Origin: a virus
Taxonomy: Duplodnaviria; Caudoviricetes
Length of the DNA stretch: 34,942 bases
Virus record (IMG/VR): IMGVR_UViG_3300005611_000102
Span: 1 to 34,942 of that record
Direction: 5' to 3' (one strand)
A model generated the notes under the pieces. The model ran no database searches and was not told the origin of the DNA. It worked only from the letters and a program-made list of their open reading frames with translations. Both the position numbers and the translations under genes were made by a program. Positions 3,635 through 13,663 of the stretch are shown here, piece after piece. Numbering within the stretch: the stretch's first letter is position 1; every line of letters starts with the position of its first letter.

Positions 3635-4081
3635 ATGCACCTTTCACAAAACTTCACGTTGCGTGAACTTACGAAAAGCCAGACAGCAGAACGTAAGGGC
3701 ATCCCTAACGAGCCAACACAAGAACATATTGAGGCTATGACTGAGCTGTGCCACAAGATATTGCAGCCGGTGCGTGATGAGTTTGGGCCGGTGACTGTGA
3801 CATCCGGCTATCGCAGCCCTGAGTTGTGTATTGCTATTGGCAGTAGCATTGACAGCCAACACGCCAAGGGCGAGGCCGCAGACTTTGAGGTGGCTGGCGT
3901 GGACAACATGACAGTGGCTCAGTGGATTGCTGATAACCTAGAGTTCGACCAACTTATTCTTGAATGTTATACTGGCGGCAACAGCGGTTGGATTCATTGC
4001 AGCTATGCGCCGGAACCACGCGGTGAGAAGCTGACATATGACAAGGCAAATGGCTACAGGCACGGATTGATTGATGGCTAA
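3635..4081 (+). CDS. endolysin, peptidase M15A family
   Basis: LSQNFTLRE, TSGYRS, SQHAKGEAADF, WIHCS zinc-peptidase motifs. Confidence 0.9.
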   Translation: MHLSQNFTLRELTKSQTAERKGIPNEPTQEHIEAMTELCHKILQPVRDEFGPVTVTSGYRSPELCIAIGSSIDSQHAKGEAADFEVAGVDNMTVAQWIADNLEFDQLILECYTGGNSGWIHCSYAPEPRGEKLTYDKANGYRHGLIDG

Positions 4082-4358
4082 GAAGGCAGACCCAAGACTG
4101 AAACGTGCTGGCGTTAGTGGCTACAACAAGCCCAAGCGCACACCTAGCCACCCGACTAAAAGCCATGTGGTTGTGGCTAAGTCTGGCGATAAGATAAAGA
4201 CCATCCGCTTTGGACAACAGGGCGTGAGCGGGGCTGGCAAAAGCCCGAAGACTGCCAAGGAAAAAGCGCGGCGCAAATCTTTCAAAGCACGCCACGCTAA
4301 AAACATTTCTAAGGGTAAGATGTCTGCCGCTTTCTGGTCCAGCAAGGTTAAGTGGTAG
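4071..4358 (+). CDS. basic hypothetical protein
   Basis: K/R-rich 95 aa with IRFGQQG and RKSFKARH..W motifs; last gene of the late operon. Confidence 0.8.
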   Translation: MMAKKADPRLKRAGVSGYNKPKRTPSHPTKSHVVVAKSGDKIKTIRFGQQGVSGAGKSPKTAKEKARRKSFKARHAKNISKGKMSAAFWSSKVKW

Positions 4359-4478
4359 CTAGAACAGTTCTGTCACTCCCGTGTAGTAGCAATCAACGCA
4401 AGATGTGCGCTTGTTGCCTAGTATCACCCAGCCTCCGGTATCTATGCAAACTCGACTGTCGCAGTAATCACAGTTCAT
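4359..4478 (-). CDS. small zinc-finger protein (39 aa)
   Basis: CxxC...CxxC (CDYC, CVDC); overlaps stop of upstream gene. Confidence 0.55.
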   Translation of the reverse strand: MNCDYCDSRVCIDTGGWVILGNKRTSCVDCYYTGVTELF

Positions 4479-4881
4479 GTATCTGAGAGCCGAACTTTTT
4501 CTCCTTGATGATGTCGATTTCTTTTGAGGCTTCCTCCCAGATTTTTTCAAACGCATCTGAACGCTCCCGATTAGATAGACTCATTATGCTTGTACGGTCT
4601 CTGTTTAAGGTGATGCCAATCGTAACAAAACTATAAGGCGTATGTTCAAGACAGAGCAAAACCAAAAGCTGTCGCGCATCAACCATTCCTTTTTTTCGAG
4701 AGCCTCTTTGATAACTCCGCATTTGGGCCAAAGTATAGCCAGTGACTTCGGTCACTATCGGAATGATGTCCATCACTGATAGTTCACGGCAGTATGCTTT
4801 CCAGAAATGCGGTGAACGAATCCGTGCCTCCTCCCAGTGGTTAATATCCCTCTCTGCCTTCAATGCGATAAGACGCTGCAT
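4468..4881 (-). CDS. DnaA domain IV (C-terminal HTH)-like DNA-binding protein
   Basis: IVTEVTG...QMRS..R....VDARQ...L....T.YSFVTIG..LNRDRTSIM resembles the DnaA domain IV pattern ARQ..MYL....T..SL..IG..F.RDHTTV; GGAGG RBS before ATG 4881; no AAA+ domain. Confidence 0.75.
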   Translation of the reverse strand: MQRLIALKAERDINHWEEARIRSPHFWKAYCRELSVMDIIPIVTEVTGYTLAQMRSYQRGSRKKGMVDARQLLVLLCLEHTPYSFVTIGITLNRDRTSIMSLSNRERSDAFEKIWEEASKEIDIIKEKKFGSQIHEL

Positions 4882-5050
4882 CGACTTCTTCCTCCCATCG
4901 TTGGACCGATAGCCCTGCCTTGAGGCATTGTTGGGCCAGGTCAAAATACTGTTTCGATGTCATGTGCTTGTAGTGGCACACGCCGTCTATGGTTATTAGC
5001 AGCCCGTCATCACGGGCCGCTAACAGTATCATTTTATCGACAGGTTCCAT
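4841..5050 (-). CDS. hypothetical protein
   Basis: 69 aa, coupled to the SSB stop. Confidence 0.65.
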   Translation of the reverse strand: MEPVDKMILLAARDDGLLITIDGVCHYKHMTSKQYFDLAQQCLKAGLSVQRWEEEVDAASYRIEGREGY

Positions 5051-5379
5051 TAGAACGGAATGTCGTCATCTAGGCTGATTGCACTGTCCGGCACATGCTT
5101 TTGTTGTAATGCCTGCCCGACTTGCTTCATGCCTGGTTGTGAAATGCCATCGGTGATGTCATCGGTGCCGTGATATTCAGTCACCTCTGAGATTTGCACT
5201 CCAAGAGAGCCATCGTCATTCTCAAAAGCGCGAACACTGTACTGCGTGTCGCCTCTGAAATTAACGTCAGCAGCAGCGCCATCTCTGTATGGCGTCCACT
5301 TTGAATTGCTGAACTTGGCTGCACCATCGCTATTAGGGAACAGCCGAATAGTGGTGATTTTATTGTATCTACGAGCCAT
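5050..5379 (-). CDS. single-stranded DNA-binding protein-like
   Basis: Acidic C-terminal tail LDDDIPF; downstream of annealase; AGGAG RBS. Confidence 0.7.
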   Translation of the reverse strand: MARRYNKITTIRLFPNSDGAAKFSNSKWTPYRDGAAADVNFRGDTQYSVRAFENDDGSLGVQISEVTEYHGTDDITDGISQPGMKQVGQALQQKHVPDSAISLDDDIPF

Positions 5380-5389
5380 TTGTTTCTCC

Positions 5390-6067
5390 TTATGAATATT
5401 TGGCTTCTGCGGATTTGAATAGGTCTATGATAGGTGCGGCACGTTCAGGGCTTCTGTCTTTCAGCTCCTTGATACGCGACTTGTTCTGCATGAAATATTC
5501 AGTGACCTGGCTTTTGGTCTTGCAGTTGTCCAGCCGCATACGAACCTCTTTGTAGAAGTTCACATCCTTGGCCTTGTTTGGGTCATCTGGCGTGGAAGGC
5601 TCAGGGGGTGCAGCCTCGCCAGCCGGAGGGTGCTGGGTGGGAGTGGGCGCACCGCCCTGATTCGATGATTTTAACGCCTCCTCCTTGCGAGGTACAGCAG
5701 CCATTTCGTTTGCTGACGCATATTCACCGCCAGCAAGCCCGATACAGGCCAATGCCCTTCCTATAGCAGATGTCTCGCAGTTTTCCAAAGCCGATGTTTT
5801 GTTGACATTGCCTTGGCCTCTGATTTCCTCAGCCATGCCAGAGCCGATACAGATGCCATTGCTATCTGTGATAGTGGCTTTGATAACGACACGTTGTCCG
5901 TCATCGACCATGATTTGCGTATCAACGCCCATATCTGTGCCGAACACAGTTCTGAACGCCTCCATCCGGTGTACGACTTGCGTGTACTTTTTGCCGCCAC
6001 GCTGGGCCACACCGTGCGACTTGTTCAAGTCATTCACAAGCCCCATTGCATCTATTAATTTACTCAT
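5390..6067 (-). CDS. Rad52/Sak-like single-strand annealing protein
   Basis: KKY..V..R...FR and ALENCETSAIGRAL..IG motifs; Pro-rich linker and helical C-domain; lies between exonuclease and SSB. Confidence 0.7.
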   Translation of the reverse strand: MSKLIDAMGLVNDLNKSHGVAQRGGKKYTQVVHRMEAFRTVFGTDMGVDTQIMVDDGQRVVIKATITDSNGICIGSGMAEEIRGQGNVNKTSALENCETSAIGRALACIGLAGGEYASANEMAAVPRKEEALKSSNQGGAPTPTQHPPAGEAAPPEPSTPDDPNKAKDVNFYKEVRMRLDNCKTKSQVTEYFMQNKSRIKELKDRSPERAAPIIDLFKSAEAKYS

Positions 6068-6249
6068 TGCTTATTCTCCACTGAAAAGATGGTGTCAAAC
6101 ACTTGGTTCACTGACCGGATTTCCTTGTTGTGGATGCCGTCCATCAGCCGGATATGCTTGGTTAGCAGCTCCACCTGAGTTTCCAGCTTGTCCACCTTAG
6201 CAGTCAGCTCATCAATCGCCTGTGCGTGATACTGTTCTGTCTCTGTCAT
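6064..6249 (-). CDS. small coiled-coil hypothetical protein
   Basis: GGAGG RBS before ATG 6249; heptad pattern; overlaps both neighbours. Confidence 0.7.
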   Translation of the reverse strand: MTETEQYHAQAIDELTAKVDKLETQVELLTKHIRLMDGIHNKEIRSVNQVFDTIFSVENKQ

Positions 6250-7136
6250 ATCCTCCAAGCCTCCTTTGCAATCTTGAGAATGTCGGGCCCGTGTCGCTGA
6301 GCTATCTGCCCAAAGTCCGGCTGGACCAGGCCGAACAGCGTCCTCCAAGAACCGTTGGCAGCTTTCAACAGATTTTGTTGCACCATCCAACGCATTACTA
6401 TTGTGTTGTACACCTCTTCCAGTCGTTCAGGCTTCATCATCTCGCAGTTAGTCTCGTCCACGATGTTAAAGCCAGCCGCTGTAACGAACAGTAAGGCCGG
6501 TTTGTCACCTGTGGCCTTCCAATACACCGCCTGTTGCATTAACTGCTGCTCAGTAGGCTCTGAGCGCGGTTTTGGTACACGCCAAGTGCGGGTGCCGTCC
6601 TTTTTTACTGGGTTACGCAGTGGAAAAGAGCATTTAAGGTCGATTTGTTTGCCGTCACCGGCATAATCTTGATACAGCATGATAGGCACATCCAGCCGGT
6701 CATCTTTATGCCACCGCTGGAACTCGCCTTCTATCTCGCCGTCACCAAAATACTCATTGAGGCCATCGACAGCGTGTTTCGCCATCTCGCCAAGGTATTC
6801 TTTGAAGCAATCATATTCTTCAAGGTCTTTGCCATCATCCCACTGGCGGGGCTGATAGTTCATATATTCTGTAAGGCCATACCTTACAGCTTCCGGCAAT
6901 CCAATGCCTTCTTTGCGCCCATAAATGGGGCTGTAGTCATGCAAACCTAGTGCATGGTCTGCGATTTCCTGCACAATCTGTCCTGCCCTTGGTCTTGCAC
7001 CAAAGGGAAAGTTCATCTTGTATTCTTTTCGCAGTAATAGTTTCAGGATGTATTCATCAATGGGCTGGGTGCCGCTTGATGCGCTCAGATGCGTGGCCCC
7101 GAAGGGTTCACGATAGGCGGGTACTTCAAATTCCAT
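6246..7136 (-). CDS. PD-(D/E)XK exonuclease (RecB/lambda-exo-like)
   Basis: HLSASS, E..., YQDY...IDLK, QQAVY motifs; GGAGG RBS before ATG 7136. Confidence 0.75.
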   Translation of the reverse strand: MEFEVPAYREPFGATHLSASSGTQPIDEYILKLLLRKEYKMNFPFGARPRAGQIVQEIADHALGLHDYSPIYGRKEGIGLPEAVRYGLTEYMNYQPRQWDDGKDLEEYDCFKEYLGEMAKHAVDGLNEYFGDGEIEGEFQRWHKDDRLDVPIMLYQDYAGDGKQIDLKCSFPLRNPVKKDGTRTWRVPKPRSEPTEQQLMQQAVYWKATGDKPALLFVTAAGFNIVDETNCEMMKPERLEEVYNTIVMRWMVQQNLLKAANGSWRTLFGLVQPDFGQIAQRHGPDILKIAKEAWRI

Positions 7137-7215
7137 GGGTTCCTCCGTTCTCAACTCCCGTGCTATGCTTAGCAGTCCACTTGCCAACGTGTCAACTTTT
7201 ATTTATGGTGAACTT

Positions 7216-7410
7216 ATGCCAACGATTATTTTTACATTTGATGACGAGATTGATTGCCCTGAATGTGGCGGTGAGGGCCGTGTTGAGTACGAGTTCAACG
7301 TGATTGACCATATTCGCGGCGGCGAGGTAGTCGGGCTGGTTAGAGAGTGCCGGATGTGTGAGGGCAGCGGCGTGATTTATGTGGAGCCTGCTGATGATGA
7401 AGCTGGGTAA
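7216..7410 (+). CDS. DnaJ-type zinc-finger protein
   Basis: Two CxxCxGxG motifs (CPECGGEG, CRMCEGSG). Confidence 0.75.
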   Translation: MPTIIFTFDDEIDCPECGGEGRVEYEFNVIDHIRGGEVVGLVRECRMCEGSGVIYVEPADDEAG

Positions 7411-7522
7411 GACATATCTATGCCGATACGCTCATCAGGATGAGGATGTGCCGGTAGGCTGGGCTTCTCAGCCTATGGGTGGGCATCACGGGGCCAATGG
7501 CTATGTTTTGTGGAGTAAAGAG

Positions 7523-7912
7523 ATGACTAACGGGCGTATGAAGGGTGCAAATTTCGAGCGTGAATGTGCGCGGATGCTGTTCGAGCGCACCGGATTAGAG
7601 GCCAAGCGCGACTTGGAACAATATAGAGCCAGTGACCACGGCGATTTGATAGGGGTGCCAGGCTGGACTGTGGAGTGCAAACGTCATGCACACGGCACGA
7701 CTTGGAAAAAAAGCTGGTGGGAACAGGTGGAGGCAGCAAGCAATGCGTCAGGTACAGAACCTGTATTGATATATAAGTATGACCGCTGCCCGATTCGATG
7801 CGTTGTCCGGCTGTCGAGCATATCCCCTGTGTATATACAAAAGGATAACGTGGCTGAGGTCGATTTCGATACTTGGTGTATGCTAGTAGCAGAAAGTATG
7901 TGTGATGTATGA
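7523..7912 (+). CDS. Holliday junction resolvase-like PD-(D/E)XK nuclease (possible in-frame N-terminal extension from about 7394)
   Basis: KGANFERE...GDL......VECK...WWEQ...PVLIY; GGAG RBS before ATG 7523. Confidence 0.8.
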   Translation: MTNGRMKGANFERECARMLFERTGLEAKRDLEQYRASDHGDLIGVPGWTVECKRHAHGTTWKKSWWEQVEAASNASGTEPVLIYKYDRCPIRCVVRLSSISPVYIQKDNVAEVDFDTWCMLVAESMCDV

Positions 7913-8126
7913 GACAATCTTGGCAGTTTGTTTTGCCATAACACTGGGCGGTCAGCCGGCGAATCCATGCTGGATGGCTAAAGAAGAGACACGGTTTAGC
8001 ACCATCGAGGAGTGTCAGTTTTACGCTGAGAAGCGCGAGGCATATGTCACGCAGGATGTGGCAAGAAACTATGAGGTGCCGCCAGTCGTTTCTGTTCAGT
8101 GTACTGCGGTCAAAGGCCGGTTCTAA
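7902..8126 (+). CDS. hypothetical protein with signal-peptide-like N-terminus and 4 Cys
   Basis: 74 aa, overlaps resolvase stop. Confidence 0.65.
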   Translation: MMYETILAVCFAITLGGQPANPCWMAKEETRFSTIEECQFYAEKREAYVTQDVARNYEVPPVVSVQCTAVKGRF

Positions 8127-8131
8127 AAAGA

Positions 8132-8160
8132 CTTGAAATCTGCAAAGGCAGCACTAATAT
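8132..8160 (+). promoter_or_regulatory. putative sigma70 promoter
   Basis: CTTGAA-N17-TAATAT, close to the alphaproteobacterial CTTGAC-N17-CTATAT consensus. Confidence 0.5.
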
Positions 8161-8164
8161 ATTC

Positions 8165-8238
8165 AGTGATACTTAGCGGCCCGAAAGGGTTGTCCAAAGA
8201 AAAGGATAGGCCAAATCTGTCGTGCCTATCCTTTTTTT
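8165..8238 (+). ncRNA. candidate small RNA (about 70-75 nt)
   Basis: No ORF between promoter and terminator; GCGGCCC-GAAA-GGGUUGU hairpin (8176-8193) whose G-U pairs work only on the + strand. Confidence 0.4.
8200..8238. terminator. bidirectional rho-independent terminator
   Basis: AAAAGGATAGGC/GCCTATCCTTTT stem with T7 run and upstream A-run, between convergent genes. Confidence 0.8.
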
Positions 8239-8242
8239 GTAT

Positions 8243-9130
8243 CTACTTAATACCAGCTAGAATGTGCGCCACTACGTCCACAGTCCAGCCATTGCCCAGC
8301 ATCCGGTAGCGTTGTGAATTGCTGACGCCTTCTGTGTAGTTATCTGGCACGGTTTGCAATCGTTCACATTCAATGGGGGTTAGCTTTCTCCAAGCTGTTT
8401 CAGAGACAGCGGTCTTTGGCTCAAGGTTGCCGCCACTAGCGGCGCACAAGCTGGGTGCTTTGCCTTCAGGGTGATAGACTCTGCGATTGTAGCCGTGGCC
8501 CTTGATGTCGGCGGCGTGACCAGCAAGGATAAGACCGCTTGCTCTCTCCTTCTGGCTTTTGTTTTTCTGCCTCTCTATAAACCTGTTAGACATCACAGTG
8601 AAGTCCTGCGGCGCATCTAGTATGTCACGCATCACCAAGCCCTTGTCTGCTGGCATGTCAAAGGGGATATTGGTCCAGTAGAGTCGGTAACGGTTCTGCG
8701 CTGAGACCAGACTGCTATTGATTGCTACAGGGGCGACGCCAAGCATCTCGCTGATGACATCTTGGCTTTCTTGTTTCATTCGGACGTTTTCCAACAAGAA
8801 CCAGCGCGGTTGCGCCTCTTTCAACAGCCGGACATATTCAAAGAACAGTTTGCTTCGAGGGTCATCAAAGTTCAGTTGCTTGCCAGCAAAGCTGAACCCT
8901 TGGCATGGACTGCCGCCGATAAGCAGGTCTATCTTCTCGCCATCGAATGTCTCAGGCCACATAACATCCTGCACATTTCCGATGTGTACAATGTCGGGCC
9001 AGTTCTTCCTGGCTATCTGTATGGCGTACTTGTCTATCTCGCTGGCAAAGTATCGGCGCGGTGTTATGCCGCACCTGTCCAGAGCAATACGCCCACAGGC
9101 CATTCCATCAAATAGTGACAATACGTTCAT
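8243..9130 (-). CDS. DNA (cytosine-5)-methyltransferase
   Basis: Motif I (LSLFDG), IV (GGSPCQGFS), VI (LENV), VIII (Q.R.R), X (LGNGW). Confidence 0.95.
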   Translation of the reverse strand: MNVLSLFDGMACGRIALDRCGITPRRYFASEIDKYAIQIARKNWPDIVHIGNVQDVMWPETFDGEKIDLLIGGSPCQGFSFAGKQLNFDDPRSKLFFEYVRLLKEAQPRWFLLENVRMKQESQDVISEMLGVAPVAINSSLVSAQNRYRLYWTNIPFDMPADKGLVMRDILDAPQDFTVMSNRFIERQKNKSQKERASGLILAGHAADIKGHGYNRRVYHPEGKAPSLCAASGGNLEPKTAVSETAWRKLTPIECERLQTVPDNYTEGVSNSQRYRMLGNGWTVDVVAHILAGIK

Positions 9131-9151
9131 AGTTTCCCTCCATTTTCTGTA

Positions 9152-9181
9152 TTGACAGAGTTATCCACAGGTGATTAAAAT
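9152..9181 (+). promoter_or_regulatory. putative sigma70 promoter with a DnaA box in its spacer
   Basis: TTGACA (9152-9157)-N18-TAAAAT (9176-9181); points antisense to the flanking - strand genes. Confidence 0.6.
9161..9169 (+). promoter_or_regulatory. perfect DnaA box TTATCCACA
   Basis: Exact consensus 9-mer in an intergenic region. Confidence 0.7.
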
Positions 9182-9187
9182 CGCGTA

Positions 9188-9362
9188 GCGACCACGCAAA
9201 GCATCGCAGCAATCCACTGCTGTGATGCAGTCGCAGTGAAAGAACAAAATCTTTTGATATAAAAAAAGAAGCACAGCTACAAAGCAATGCACTGATGCAC
9301 AGCTATACTGCAATGCAATGCTACATAGCACTGCATTGCGTTTTTCTTTTTTATTTTGTTTT
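9188..9362. repeat. candidate replication origin / structured RNA: hairpins, 26-bp tandem repeats, A- and T-tracts
   Basis: GCATCGCAGCA/TGCTGTGATGC stem (9201-9228); GCACAGCTA....GCAATGCA repeated at 9271 and 9297; GCAATGCA..TGCATTGC hairpin (9310-9339) followed by T-tract. Confidence 0.55.
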
Positions 9363-9536
9363 TTATCTTTCATCCAGTTCTATTGCCTGCAATAGCAGTT
9401 CGACTGTGCGGTTGATTGGCACCTCTTCTGATTCATAGTACCGGATGGTGCGCGGTGACAGGCCCAGCTTCTTGGCAAACTCAGCTTGTGAGTAGCCAAG
9501 GAACTCGCGCCTTTCTCTGAAATCTTTACCTGTCAT
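9363..9536 (-). CDS. XRE/Cro-like HTH transcriptional regulator
   Basis: FRERRE.LG.SQAEFAKKLGLS.RTI.YYE. Confidence 0.9.
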   Translation of the reverse strand: MTGKDFRERREFLGYSQAEFAKKLGLSPRTIRYYESEEVPINRTVELLLQAIELDER

Positions 9537-9721
9537 TACTCGCTCCAATCTGCCCACTTTGTCGATACAGTGTCCTGCTCATATGTTTCAGGCCATTCAT
9601 CAACCACGGTTGTGAACATCTCGTGAGCCGTCCGCTCTGCATTGTCTACGCTGTCAGCTTTGACATGAATCGTCTTTGTCAGGGATGCGCGGATTGTCAC
9701 CGCATAATCTTTTTGTTCCAT
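9536..9721 (-). CDS. hypothetical early protein
   Basis: GGAGG RBS; coupled to the XRE gene. Confidence 0.75.
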   Translation of the reverse strand: MEQKDYAVTIRASLTKTIHVKADSVDNAERTAHEMFTTVVDEWPETYEQDTVSTKWADWSE

Positions 9722-9723
9722 AG

Positions 9724-9948
9724 CTAGTCCTCCAAGCCCATAGGTTCACTGCCCATCCAATGCGGCTCTGTTGCCTCCTCGATGCGGCCTATGCCGCCGC
9801 AATAGAAGTTCTCCGCGCTGATAGTCTGCACCTTTTGCAGCAGAGCTTGTGCGTCCTCTCTGCTCTTTACTATTTGATAGGTGTCTTTGCTTGTCGGTTC
9901 TCCGCTGACACCAGCATCGAACTTCAGTGTGTAAAATACTGCGTACAT
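9724..9948 (-). CDS. hypothetical early protein
   Basis: AGGAGG RBS; 74 aa. Confidence 0.75.
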   Translation of the reverse strand: MYAVFYTLKFDAGVSGEPTSKDTYQIVKSREDAQALLQKVQTISAENFYCGGIGRIEEATEPHWMGSEPMGLED

Positions 9949-9966
9949 CTCTATGCCTCCTCTCTG

Positions 9967-10023
9967 TCAGGCAGTGAGGGGCAGCACCGCGCTGCCCCTT
10001 TCTCTGCTAGCTGCTTTTGCCAT
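9967..10023 (-). CDS. candidate mini-ORF / leader peptide MAKAASRERGSAVLPLTA (18 aa)
   Basis: Strong AGGAGGG RBS and the same leader motif as gene 10780-11115; contains a 9-bp GC hairpin (9977-9999). Confidence 0.4.
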   Translation of the reverse strand: MAKAASRERGSAVLPLTA

Positions 10024-10132
10024 TGTACAACCCTCCTATGGTTATGGCGTTATCGGTGACACTATGCCACCGCATAGACTGCCGCCATGCGGCAAGCTAT
10101 GCAGGGGCAGGGCCATTGCTGGCCCGTGCCTG

Positions 10133-10315
10133 CTAGTTTGCTTCCAACACTGCGAGCGGATAACAAAACTCTGCCAGACCTTCGCGCCAATCTGCGGCGG
10201 TGTAGTCCTGCCATTCCTCTGAGCGGTCTCTGTTTATCTCATCCAAAATTGCCGGAATCGTCATTAGCCGCTTTTGGCCTGTCTCTATGTCAATTATCGT
10301 GTATTTTTTCTGCAT
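10133..10315 (-). CDS. hypothetical early protein
   Basis: AGGAGGG RBS; EINRDRSEEW.DY...DWREG motif. Confidence 0.75.
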   Translation of the reverse strand: MQKKYTIIDIETGQKRLMTIPAILDEINRDRSEEWQDYTAADWREGLAEFCYPLAVLEAN

Positions 10316-10422
10316 TGTTTTTCCCTCCTATGCCATTTATGGCGATTCAAAGCCCATACAGGGCCGGTGATGCCTGGCAGGTGGTTTTTACCTGCCAAGC
10401 GGTTAAAGCCTGTCAGTGGCCT

Positions 10423-10551
10423 TTATAGGCCGATAAAATAGGCGAATAACTGCCAAAGCCATGCCTCGGCCCCCATCAAGCCCCATATGACTAGGCCCAT
10501 AAGTATGATGAACAGAATGTTCGCGCATATCTCGGTTGTTTGCTCGGTCAT
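10423..10551 (-). CDS. small membrane peptide (42 aa)
   Basis: MTEQTTEICANILFIILMGLVIWGLMGAEAWLWQLFAYFIGL; GGAGG RBS; below ORF-track cutoff. Confidence 0.65.
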   Translation of the reverse strand: MTEQTTEICANILFIILMGLVIWGLMGAEAWLWQLFAYFIGL

Positions 10552-10552
10552 G

Positions 10553-10768
10553 TTACTGCCTCCGCATGAATGGCTTGCAATACTTGTTGAAGAACGCACG
10601 TTCTAGGCGTTTGTACTTTGTAGGGCGTCCGCCTCGGTACTGGTCAAGCCACCGTCTGCCGTTCTTATCGGTGGTGGCGTATCGCCGCGCCAGCCAAGCA
10701 TTGATTGCCAAGAAGCGGTCTGCATTGCGCTGTGCGTCATCCGCTGTAATTGTGAAGTATGGTTTCAT
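10553..10768 (-). CDS. basic hypothetical early protein
   Basis: AGGAGG RBS before ATG 10768. Confidence 0.75.
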   Translation of the reverse strand: MKPYFTITADDAQRNADRFLAINAWLARRYATTDKNGRRWLDQYRGGRPTKYKRLERAFFNKYCKPFMRRQ

Positions 10769-10779
10769 TGTGTTGCCTC

Positions 10780-11115
10780 CTACTTGCTCGCCCATAATTC
10801 AGCCAATGCGTCATCTAGGCCTAGCGCATCATCATAGTAATACGCCTCCGCTCTATCGGACCACCAATAGCCCTCAATGGTTTTGGTGCGTGTATTAATC
10901 CAAATATTAGGGCCGCCATAGGCGACCAGCACCCTTGCCCCTAAGTATTCGCCATGGCTGCTGACGGTGTACTCTATGTCAAGCGCATCCGACAAATAAT
11001 CATAGGCGTTGCACGGTTCATCATTGTCGTGCGTTTCGTATTCGCCTGAATTGATTTGGTCTGCAATGTGTTTGCATTGCTGAAACAGCTGTTCTTGTGT
11101 GTTAATCTTTGCCAT
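10780..11115 (-). CDS. hypothetical early protein (acidic, GGPNIW motif)
   Basis: AGGAGGG RBS; 111 aa; lies immediately downstream of the hammerhead. Confidence 0.85.
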   Translation of the reverse strand: MAKINTQEQLFQQCKHIADQINSGEYETHDNDEPCNAYDYLSDALDIEYTVSSHGEYLGARVLVAYGGPNIWINTRTKTIEGYWWSDRAEAYYYDDALGLDDALAELWASK

Positions 11116-11146
11116 TGCGTAACCCTCCTATAATGGCGTTTCTGAT

Positions 11147-11209
11147 GGCCTCATCAGTACCGGCCTCACCGGTAGACCAAGCCCGATATTATCGGGCAAG
11201 GTTTCGGCC
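11147..11209 (-). ncRNA. type II hammerhead ribozyme
   Basis: Minus strand reads GGCC-GAAAC-C-UU-GCCCGAU-AAU-AUCGGGC-UU-G-GUC^-UACCGG-UGAGG-CCGGUA-CUGAUGA-GGCC: complete catalytic core, closed stems I and III, open 4-bp stem II. Confidence 0.9.
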
Positions 11210-11436
11210 TAGTTAATTGTTGCCGCAAAGTCTGGTTTGGTTGCCATATCAACCTTGCCAATGCGCCAATCTCGTACAGTGTCAAGCTGGCCCTGGTCTA
11301 TCTTTGATTGCCAGTACTTAATAACGGCCTCAGCTTGCGCCAGGGTGTGGATGTAATCGCCATTCACAGTTTCGATTAAAAGCGATTCCAGCTTGTCGGT
11401 GGCGTACTTGCCCCATATTACGTAGTGGTGTGTCAT
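11209..11436 (-). CDS. hypothetical early protein
   Basis: GGAGG RBS before ATG 11436; its TAG stop overlaps hammerhead stem II. Confidence 0.75.
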   Translation of the reverse strand: MTHHYVIWGKYATDKLESLLIETVNGDYIHTLAQAEAVIKYWQSKIDQGQLDTVRDWRIGKVDMATKPDFAATIN

Positions 11437-11438
11437 GA

Positions 11439-11615
11439 TTAAGCCCTCCGGTTTTTTGTTGCTGTCAGATACACGATAGACGATAGGCCTTCGCCCTCTG
11501 CATAAATCCATTTCGCGGCGTGTGCTGAGCTTGCGCGGACATATGCACCGTTGCGTGTGCCACGATAGCTGACAAAGAATAGCGGTTCTGTGTTGTATTT
11601 TGTTTGATATGACAT
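11439..11615 (-). CDS. hypothetical early protein (first gene of the early operon)
   Basis: GGGAG RBS before ATG 11615; 58 aa. Confidence 0.7.
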   Translation of the reverse strand: MSYQTKYNTEPLFFVSYRGTRNGAYVRASSAHAAKWIYAEGEGLSSIVYLTATKNRRA

Positions 11616-11652
11616 TGTGCAATACTCCCGAATTGCGTTGTTGATAGGTCCG

Positions 11653-11680
11653 ATATAGGCAAGCATTGCCGCCCTGTCAA
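11653..11680 (-). promoter_or_regulatory. early sigma70 promoter
   Basis: Minus strand TTGACA-N16-CTATAT (i.e. GTTGAC-N17-CTATAT), near-perfect alphaproteobacterial consensus, with an upstream AT-rich tract. Confidence 0.75.
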
Positions 11681-11843
11681 CACATAAAAAGCACTTAATG
11701 TAAAAAAAGTTTACAGCAACGCGAGCTGGTGTATATATTATAAAGCATTGGAAACATTGGAGCGGAATGGGTTGGGGCATATCTCACAACACACAACACG
11801 TTGTCGCGTTCCCCGCGTGCATTGTATGCCGAGCCTATCACAG

Positions 11844-11880
11844 TGTGGCAAAAATGCAACAGTGTGGCAGCCAGGCAACA
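11844..11880. promoter_or_regulatory. tandem quasi-palindromic operator-like sites
   Basis: TGTGGCA-AAAA-TGCAACA and TGTGGCA-GCCA-GGCAACA at a 19-bp period, upstream of terS. Confidence 0.45.
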
Positions 11881-11999
11881 GTACAAGGCATGGGGGGGGT
11901 CTCGCGGCACCGTCACCCCCAGCAGGCGCGGCCACTCTACATATGTGTTAATTGCCCCTGCAAAACACACAGACTAAACACACAGCCTACGGAGCAAAC

Positions 12000-12377
12000 A
12001 TGACGAAGCTAACGAAGTTCACAACCCAGCAGATACTCAGCGACCTTGCTGACGGCTACACGATGGTCGATGCTTGCAAGAAAGCTGGCATTACCAGACA
12101 GGCTTTGTACAAGCGCATGAAGGGCAATGCAGAGCTAGACGCTTCTGTGCGCATTGCGCAACAGTACAGCGCTGAGAAGGCTCTTGAGGAGCTTGATAAG
12201 CTGTACGATGATGCTTTGAACAAAGTGAAAGACTATGACCCGCATGTATTGCGTGACTATGCGCATCATGTGCGCTGGAAGGTGCAGAAGATTATACCGG
12301 AGCGCTATGGTGAGCAGAAGAACAAGGCTGGCGTTGAGGTGACTGACGGCGGTATTCGCATCATGTGGGAAAGCTAA
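12000..12377 (+). CDS. terS: terminase small subunit
   Basis: N-terminal HTH, RW.....P..YG motif, GGAG RBS, directly upstream of TerL. Confidence 0.8.
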   Translation: MTKLTKFTTQQILSDLADGYTMVDACKKAGITRQALYKRMKGNAELDASVRIAQQYSAEKALEELDKLYDDALNKVKDYDPHVLRDYAHHVRWKVQKIIPERYGEQKNKAGVEVTDGGIRIMWES

Positions 12378-13663
12378 TGAACGTCAAGATACCTTACAAG
12401 CCTCGTGCGCTCCAAGCTGAGATGCACAGCAGCTTGAAGCGCTGGAACGTCTTAGTGATGCACAGGCGCTTTGGCAAGACTGTATTTGCGGTAAATCATT
12501 TAATTAAACACGCACTCACTTGTGAGCTACCAAGGCCCAGAGTTGCGTTCATTGCGCCTACCTTTACGCAGGCCAAGCGGATTGCTTGGGATTATGTGAA
12601 GTATTACGCGTCCGTGATTCCTGGCGTTTCTTTCAATGAGACTGAACTCAGGGTGGACTTTCCTAATGGCGGCAGGCTGATGCTATTGTCTGCTGAGAAC
12701 CCTGATGCCTTGCGCGGTATTTATCTGGATATGGCTATCTTCGATGAATTTGGTATGCAGAATCCGAGGGTATGGGGGGAGGTTGTAAGACCGGCCCTGT
12801 CTGACAGAGAGGGTGCGGCTATTTTTCTTGGCACCCCAGCCGGACATAATCATTTTTTTGACCTTCTGGAGCAAGCCCGTTCAGAGATGGAGAATGGTTC
12901 CGACCAGTGGTACTGGAAGGTTGTGAAGGCCAGCGAGAGTGGGCTGGTGAAGGATGTCGAGCTAGATGCTGCTCGTGTGCAGATGACGCCTGAGCAGTAT
13001 GAGCAGGAGTACGAGTGTTCCTTCACGGCGGCAATTATTGGGGCGTATTACGGCAAGTTAATGGCTGAGGCTGATGATGAGGGGCGGATTACGCGGGTTC
13101 CATATGACCCAGCCTATCCGGTGCATACGGCTTGGGATTTAGGCGTGAACGACTCAACAGCCATTTGGTTTGCTCAGGTGTTCCGTGGTGGCGCGGTTAA
13201 TGTGATTGATTATTACGAAAACGGTGGTGTAGGCCTCGACCATTACGCTGATGTTATAAATAGGAAGGATTACACTTATGGCGACCACTTGGCTCCGCAT
13301 GACATTGAGGTGCGTGAGCTTGGCAGTGGCAAGTCGAGGTTAGAGACTGCTGCGACGCTTGGATTAAGGTTTAAGGTAGTTCCTAAGATGAAGGTAGCGG
13401 ATGGCATTAATGCTGCGCGTATGTTATTACCTAAATGCTACTTTGACAGAGATAAGTGTGTGACGGGCATTGAGATGTTGCGTCAATACAGGCAGGAATG
13501 GGATGAGCGTAGAAAAATGTTTAGAGACCATCCGAGGCATGATTTCACAAGTCATGCAGCAGATGCGTTTAGGTATCTTGCTGTTGGCCTCGAAAATCGA
13601 CAGCGCCTTACAAAGCCTCCGCAATCGGTTGCACAAATGGAGTACAATCCTTTCACGCTATGA
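12377..13663 (+). CDS. terL: terminase large subunit
   Basis: HRRFGKT Walker A, LRG....AIFDE Walker B, GTP motif, AWDLG..D nuclease, HAADAFRY. Confidence 0.95.
   Translation: MNVKIPYKPRALQAEMHSSLKRWNVLVMHRRFGKTVFAVNHLIKHALTCELPRPRVAFIAPTFTQAKRIAWDYVKYYASVIPGVSFNETELRVDFPNGGRLMLLSAENPDALRGIYLDMAIFDEFGMQNPRVWGEVVRPALSDREGAAIFLGTPAGHNHFFDLLEQARSEMENGSDQWYWKVVKASESGLVKDVELDAARVQMTPEQYEQEYECSFTAAIIGAYYGKLMAEADDEGRITRVPYDPAYPVHTAWDLGVNDSTAIWFAQVFRGGAVNVIDYYENGGVGLDHYADVINRKDYTYGDHLAPHDIEVRELGSGKSRLETAATLGLRFKVVPKMKVADGINAARMLLPKCYFDRDKCVTGIEMLRQYRQEWDERRKMFRDHPRHDFTSHAADAFRYLAVGLENRQRLTKPPQSVAQMEYNPFTL

Follow-up and report, generated by a model that had tools for sequence, protein, structure and literature searches.

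Engineered RiboJ-type insulators place a ribozyme cut, and then a hairpin, before a ribosome-binding site, and the hammerheads of viroids have stable inactive alternative folds that hide the core. The closest described systems to the element reported here are the bacterial and prophage type II hammerheads (Perreault et al. 2011, PMC3088659; Rfam family RF02276), which, in the available excerpts of that paper, have an open stem II, lie in intergenic regions of phage operons and are proposed to process mRNA; their published consensus includes a pseudoknot, and tandem prophage hammerheads cleave both in vitro and in E. coli. A minimal tertiary contact, a Hoogsteen pair between U1.7 and an A of loop II (O'Rourke et al.), is described in the accessible part of PMC11875169, which also states that U7 was not essential in that paper's own constructs. 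Protein-dependent cutting is known from the early polycistronic RNA of phage T7, in which RNase III cleaves between genes (PMC4858673, available in part). According to the accessible text of PMC6765202, the purpose of self-cleaving ribozymes in phages is still open, and the logic of shared genomic context led to the twister, twister sister, pistol and hatchet classes.

A type II hammerhead between two putative early genes

The DNA analysed here (the window) is a complete virus record of 34,942 bp with direct terminal repeats at its ends and a G+C content of 48%. Its plus strand carries terminase, head-tail, capsid and tail genes from position 11952; the capsid protein is 65-69% identical to that of HTVC010P-type pelagiphages. 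On the minus strand, beginning near 11615, lies a series of small genes without PHROG families, which we infer to be the early operon. The hammerhead sits between genes 2 and 3 of this putative operon, with the following layout.

11652..11680, minus strand: candidate early promoter (TTGACA, 17 nt, TATATC), found by eye and absent from the consensus scan
11209..11436, minus strand: upstream early gene (75 aa, without a PHROG family), whose in-frame UAG stop contributes A11210 and the opening G of stem II
11211-11209, minus strand: UAG stop of the upstream gene (sequence)
11210, minus strand: A directly 5' of stem II, corresponding to the final A of loop II and predicted partner of U1.7 (conservation)
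11206..11209, minus strand: 5' strand of stem II, GGCC (sequence)
11202..11205, minus strand: core GAAA, G12-A13-A14-A15.1 (sequence)
11176..11202, minus strand: stem III hairpin with UU/UU internal loop (folding, descriptor); would close the 3' end of the upstream product after a cut
11174..11175, minus strand: predicted scissile bond after GUC, C17 being 11175 (hammerhead consensus)
11158..11174, minus strand: stem I, 6 bp (UACCGG/CCGGUA) with the 5-nt loop UGAGG, U1.7 being 11168 (compensatory changes)
11151..11157, minus strand: core CUGAUGA (sequence)
11147..11150, minus strand: 3' strand of stem II, GGCC (sequence)
11142..11147, minus strand: core-covering tail CAUCAG (covariation with N7, folding)
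11116..11141, minus strand: leader with Shine-Dalgarno GGAGGG (11128-11123), repeat family D2
10780..11115, minus strand: downstream early gene of 111 aa, without a PHROG family, with relatives at 38 viral loci

The leader at 11116-11141 resembles those preceding the ATG at 10315 and the AUG near 10023, which belong to the same repeat family. Relatives of the upstream 75-aa protein were sought by pattern in viral contigs, where none of 14 matches was confirmed. Sequencing runs were searched for 9900-11700 and no RNA dataset was listed as containing it, a result with no bearing on expression. Elsewhere in the window, a non-coding stretch on the minus strand (9199-9345) before a DNA methyltransferase gene is rich in repeats and palindromes (families D1 and D6), gave a weak Rfam match (E 0.38) and may be an origin or terminator region. 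The plus strand carries two 2OG-Fe(II) oxygenase genes in tandem at 249-1396.

We confirmed from the sequence that the minus strand from 11209 to 11147 holds a complete type II hammerhead core and its three stems, a known class in a known context. The core agrees with the class consensus (CUGANGA, GAAA, NUH), and the permutation is that of type II, with stem II open and stems I and III closed by loops. Each element named by the earlier note (core nucleotides, stem I, stem III with its UU/UU loop, open stem II) lies where it had been placed, and the 75-aa ORF from 11436 to 11209 does end in frame at a UAG (11211-11209) that overlaps stem II. The Rfam search proposed in that note gave a divided answer, as Hammerhead_II (RF02276) was found at 11139-11209 on the minus strand with E = 0.0034 for the 601 nt searched (4.7e-5 per genome), at a score of 26.6 bits that falls short of the 37-bit cut-off. 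Searched whole against Rfam at the gathering score, the window gave no hits, and positions 4000-12400 searched at E up to 5 showed no other ribozyme family. The full type II descriptor had a single match in the window and none in 300 second-order Markov genomes; the loose primary pattern alone is a weak discriminator, with matches in 12 of 100 shuffles. Folding of 11142-11211 gave a z-score of -3.76, and a blastn search of GenBank phages with the hammerhead region returned no match.

Covariation in related phages, another check that had been suggested, bore the assignment out. In eight close copies 99.5% of the alignment cells were paired and four pairs were changed on both sides (two in stem I, one in stem III and one in the hairpin formed by tail and core), so that three stems with covariation surround the core. 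Stem II was invariant within these eight copies; different sequences for it are found in L340, L408 and L466. The AUG within the core was considered as a start codon (an 8-codon frame ending at the downstream Shine-Dalgarno) and rejected, since it is lost in relatives with CUGACGA such as L268. The element shares core, open stem II, intergenic place in a phage operon and proposed mRNA processing with the type II hammerheads of PMC3088659 and RF02276, and differs from them, as far as the available part of that source goes, in a stem II of 4 bp against 2 bp in the model and a score below the Rfam cut-off.

Wider sampling relied on two pattern scans of viral contigs, which returned 126 of about 160 and 125 of about 280 matches. 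These at least 251 viral loci gave 242 distinct matches, of which 218 had intact stems I and III; the stem filter removed 24 of the 242 viral matches and 9 of 58 matches from bacterial genomes. Because the search pattern itself prescribed the core and the GGCC of stem II, their conservation is no evidence. It left free the base preceding stem II, which was A in all 218 listed viral members, and position 1.7, which was U in 211 of the 218 and in 190 of 191 listed members of the main 17-nt class. The bacterial-genome scan agreed (A in 49/49, U1.7 in 48/49). This conservation fits the known U1.7:A tertiary contact between stems I and II, the putative partners being the same U1.7 and an A right before a 4-bp stem II strand. 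Compared with the system described in the available part of PMC11875169, the window's stem II has no loop, the A precedes an open stem and in many members belongs to a stop codon, and the contact is deduced from conservation. Between three and six hammerheads of the window-type subfamily were found clustered within a few kb in L002 (a 67.6-kb contig), L033/L035, L036/L037, L590/L591 and L622/L623.

The tail over the catalytic core

Just past stem II, CAUCAG (11147-11142) can pair with CUGAUG (11157-11152) in a 6-bp hairpin spanning 11157-11142 that excludes the active fold. UCAG occurred within 16 nt past stem II in 77 of the 213 listed members with a full tail region, compared to 12 and 10 in the following two 16-nt windows. 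The base before it follows position N7 of the core: among the listed members with U at N7 it was A in 32 and G in 3 (n=35), and among those with C at N7 it was G in 40 and U in 1 (n=41). The covariation persisted when each of 34 clusters was represented by a single sequence (Fisher p ~1e-7), both states being present inside four clusters, and L268 differs from the window by exactly such a double change, from U7-A to C7-G. Opposite G8, in the members whose base there can vary, the pairing was preserved in 29/30: C stood there in 19/19 members with the tail at offset 2, and a pyrimidine (C or U) in 10/11 with larger offsets. The alternative fold that the earlier note had read from the window alone thus has the marks of selection at both N7 and G8. 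We conclude from these comparisons of sequence that the tail is under selection and that it probably folds back to cover the catalytic core. The pairing between tail and core was 6 bp in 69 of the 79 listed tail-bearing members, a narrow range of strength.

The tail accompanied 11 of 11 distinct type II hammerheads from loci gathered without the hammerhead pattern, which are related and hence not independent. They include L340 (366-428) and L466 (775-837), in which the tail overlaps the 3' strand of stem II, and between these two loci stem II, N7 and tail all change together. The tail is optional, being present in 79 and missing in 139 of the 218 listed viral members; in bacterial genomes UCAG was found in 5 of 49 members (4 in agreement with N7) and the tail was missing in 44. 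Listed members with a tail have the next start about 30 nt away and a spacer richer in A and C (72% vs 58%). In many of them (L217, L225, L231, L233-L246 and similar) the leader is rich in A and C and shows no evident Shine-Dalgarno ahead of the following AUG. That the tail blocks use of the core as a Shine-Dalgarno was tried as an explanation and rejected (6/74 vs 23/128, p 0.06; the starts of the six appear to be wrongly called). In the literature searched, at title and abstract level, no phage hammerhead with a tail over its core came up, and tail strings had no match in the six supplement files of PMC10690425 that were searched.

The same tail could in principle serve the opposite end, with its UCA and loop I forming the activating pseudoknot of classic type II hammerheads, as the published consensus (PMC3088659, in the part available) would suggest and as the earlier note had offered as a tertiary contact. 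Three pairs are possible in the window copy, fewer than the at least 4 bp between loop I and 3' tail that characterise the RF02276 pseudoknot. Loop I began with UGA in 16 of 78 listed members with a tail and in 29 of 113 without, and loop/tail pairing of at least 4 bp was seen in 21.6% of 190 listed members against 23.2% in shuffles, so complementary loops are not enriched. Close copies carry the same tail beside the loops UGGGG and UAAGG, and the tail covaries with N7 instead. The proposed contact with loop I was accordingly abandoned, and we regard an activating pseudoknot as improbable in the extreme. The window element differs from the hammerheads of PMC3088659, within the available part of that source, in having no supported pseudoknot of loop I with the 3' tail and in a covarying core-covering tail that has no counterpart there.

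The upstream stop codon and the slot behind it

Stop codons of the preceding gene were frequently found close to the ribozyme. With the upstream register taken as the end of the longest upstream ORF (automatic start and stop calls, some of them wrong), the stop lay at register 0 or +1 in 97 and within -12 to +1 in 162 of the 218 listed viral members; with one sequence per cluster, about 40% lay at 0 or +1. In the close lineage of the window UAG stands at +1 in five copies behind three different genes. Such proximity would be expected of a ribosome-gated switch, in which a ribosome arriving at the stop would open stem II and let the tail pair with the core, cutting thus hinging on translation of the upstream gene, and the raw association of tail and stop at 0 or +1 (43/79 with tail vs 54/139 without, p 0.03, among the matches listed) points the same way. 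However, the association was lost with one sequence per cluster (p ~0.3), and the other six lineage members have their stops at -1, -2, -3, -3, -5 and -9; the register is -3 in L439 and -9 in L438, though their ribozymes are nearly the same. A conserved link between stop position and competing helix, as in a translation-coupled switch, was thus not found. M2, a second motif described below, also begins a few bases past stops, which points to genome packing, and the invariant A by itself favours stop triplets. We therefore consider ribosome gating unlikely, and the dependence of cleavage on terminating ribosomes that had been suggested for this locus did not withstand the varying register. Close gene packing explains the spacing of stop and ribozyme. 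From ribosome geometry, a terminating ribosome would presumably melt stem II and block cleavage, not trigger it.

The gap between stop codon and ribosome-binding site is not always filled by a hammerhead. Of the 14 loci with the closest relatives of the downstream gene (86-94% identity), two had a hammerhead in front, 11 (seven distinct sequences) had a different motif, which we call M2, and one had neither; none of the 24 more distant loci had a hammerhead in this slot (2/38 in total). Replacement of the hammerhead by M2 in the same slot is a new observation. It recurs behind the same gene in L027 (hammerhead) and L172 (M2), and between the same two gene families in L408 (hammerhead) and L550 (M2). 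M2 lies just past the stop codon and ahead of the ribosome-binding site, and was found at L131-L141, L197, L431, L501, L502, L511, L515, L519, L530, L550, L554 and L560. The window has its own copy.

10042-10135, minus strand: divergent M2 copy (25.3 bits, E ~4e-4, with a model built without the window copy)

By model search of the collected loci, M2 was confined to the phage lineage of the window. Its fold is a three-way junction with z-scores of -4.4 to -7.1 (-5.9 in L431); the copies of the window and L170 have no closing stem and carry a third hairpin at the end. Compensatory changes were seen in 6 of 16 pairs among 20 related copies, in which the motif was partly fixed by the pattern and the closing stem was not counted, and in this set only the junction G-N-A and the pairs flanking the junction look conserved. 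Against Rfam 15, M2 had no match in five loci or in L431, and the window copy gave only a chance-level snoRNA match (E 2.6); blastn against GenBank phages returned short chance-level pieces only. Twister sister, pistol and hatchet were rejected as identities, no Rfam match having been obtained, and to our knowledge M2 does not fit the consensus features of any of the three. M2 strings were absent from the six supplement files of PMC10690425 that were searched, and M2 may be listed in files 1, 2 and 4.

Other structures share the position. Before a related gene family the slot holds a hammerhead of another permutation (L420, L402), long hairpins (L407, L493) or, often, no structure. The hammerheads at about 290-350 of L420 and 1420-1470 of L402 were read as type I, with a weak Rfam type III match. 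The long intergenic hairpins in the equivalent slot (L407:1890-1990, L493:1400-1490, L341:1895-1995) are possible RNase III sites. A third structured intergenic region of the window (10320-10430, minus strand, z -3.95) has a central hairpin with paired changes in L128, L129 and L170. By analogy with the RNase III sites of T7 early RNA, as far as these are covered in the available part of PMC4858673, the slot fits a processing or stabilising site. The further proposal that this gap is an exchangeable processing slot and M2 an undescribed class of self-cleaving RNA appears doubtful to us, and the few conserved unpaired bases of M2 argue against a ribozyme. M2 may instead be a target of a host nuclease or a passive element.

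Predicted folds and the role of the cut

According to ViennaRNA, in a model that leaves out tertiary energy, covering of the core makes the uncut RNA with its tail more stable than the hammerhead fold by about 4-6 kcal/mol, and in the window RNA the probability of stem II was at most 0.001 and that of the core-covered fold at least 0.98. Across the family, the median energy gap in favour of the core-covered fold was 2.1 kcal/mol and the median probability of stem II 0.04 with the tail compared to 0.77 without it, both among the matches listed. The predicted 3' product consists of two adjacent hairpins, with four of the five Shine-Dalgarno bases mostly unpaired.

Our preferred reading, to which we assign a probability of roughly 0.55, is that the hammerhead cuts the early polycistronic mRNA 34 nt past the upstream stop, the tail over the core serving mainly to provide a double-hairpin cap at the new 5' end. 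Stem III would fold first, followed by stem I and then by stem II, the assembly being held by the U1.7:A contact with no pseudoknot. After cutting, the stem III hairpin would close the 3' end of the upstream message, which would carry a cyclic phosphate, and a 5'-OH on the stem I hairpin would mark the start of the downstream message. The tail would then pair with the freed core and bury the single-stranded RNA beside the fresh 5' terminus; between this hairpin and the ribosome-binding site a spacer rich in A and C would remain. Before cleavage the same pairing would compete with stem II, and cutting might be slowed or partial. End-dependent decay is slowed by a 5'-OH (10.1101/2020.07.22.216051, available in part), and the net job of the element would be akin to RNase III processing of T7 early RNA. 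We infer RNase III-like processing that leaves a double-hairpin cap with a 5'-OH, as the earlier note had proposed. The ribozyme with tail is probably still active, because selection on A(-1) and U1.7 is equally strong with and without the tail (A(-1) in 79/79 and U1.7 in 77/79 listed tail-bearing members). The presence of other strong structures in this slot of relatives also speaks for the reading. Several points weigh against it: tertiary energy may not offset the 4-6 kcal/mol preference for the core-covered fold, the tail emerges 1-5 nt past stem II and so would leave cleavage almost no head start, adjacent helices swap rapidly in vivo (PMC2817708, in the part available), the tail is optional, and orthologous loci mostly lack the hammerhead. 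With only 4 bp joining the two cleavage products, there would also be hardly any need to lock them against re-ligation.

An alternative explanation is that the tail was selected mainly for its action before cleavage, as a brake that sets the fraction or timing of cutting and tunes expression of the flanking genes, possibly in response to Mg2+, temperature or transcription pausing. The drop in stem II probability and the narrow pairing strength would both follow, and in vivo the folding of a ribozyme can be blocked by competing helices downstream of it (PMC2817708, in the part available). However, no signal or partner was identified, simpler changes could presumably weaken a ribozyme, and the cap fits the same data. 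We rate the brake, which is the main rival, as rather unlikely and favour the cap as the selected role of the tail, with slower cleavage as a consequence, a distinction that sequence alone cannot make.

A more radical form of inhibition, in which the tail silences the ribozyme almost completely and leaves a passive hairpin stack like the non-hammerhead structures of the slot, would agree with the predicted dominance of the core-covered fold in the window and with a slot that also accepts M2 and long hairpins. It is hard to reconcile with A(-1) and U1.7 being near-invariant in tail-bearing members and with the joint changes of stem II, N7 and tail between L340 and L466, which keep both folds possible, and we judge it highly improbable.

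Read as a capped cleavage product, the locus resembles the T7 system in a predicted intergenic cut within an early transcript; it differs from it, as described in the available part of PMC4858673, in that the cut would be protein-free, would leave 5'-OH and cyclic phosphate ends and would occur at a single site of the window genome. The window element is, on the strength of its sequence features, a hammerhead of known class, in a variant whose core-covering tail is under selection, accompanied by the lead of M2. In contrast to RiboJ-type insulators and viroid hammerheads, its second hairpin is built from the ribozyme's own core and a tail of 5-6 nt.

With 70 nt, the element would allow a direct test of the role of a phage ribozyme, for which natural variants are on hand: members with and without the tail, a compensatory double change, varied stop positions and a ribozyme replaced between the same genes. 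The exchange of hammerhead and M2 also names a concrete candidate RNA, by the same logic of shared context that is described, in the accessible text of PMC6765202, for earlier ribozyme classes.
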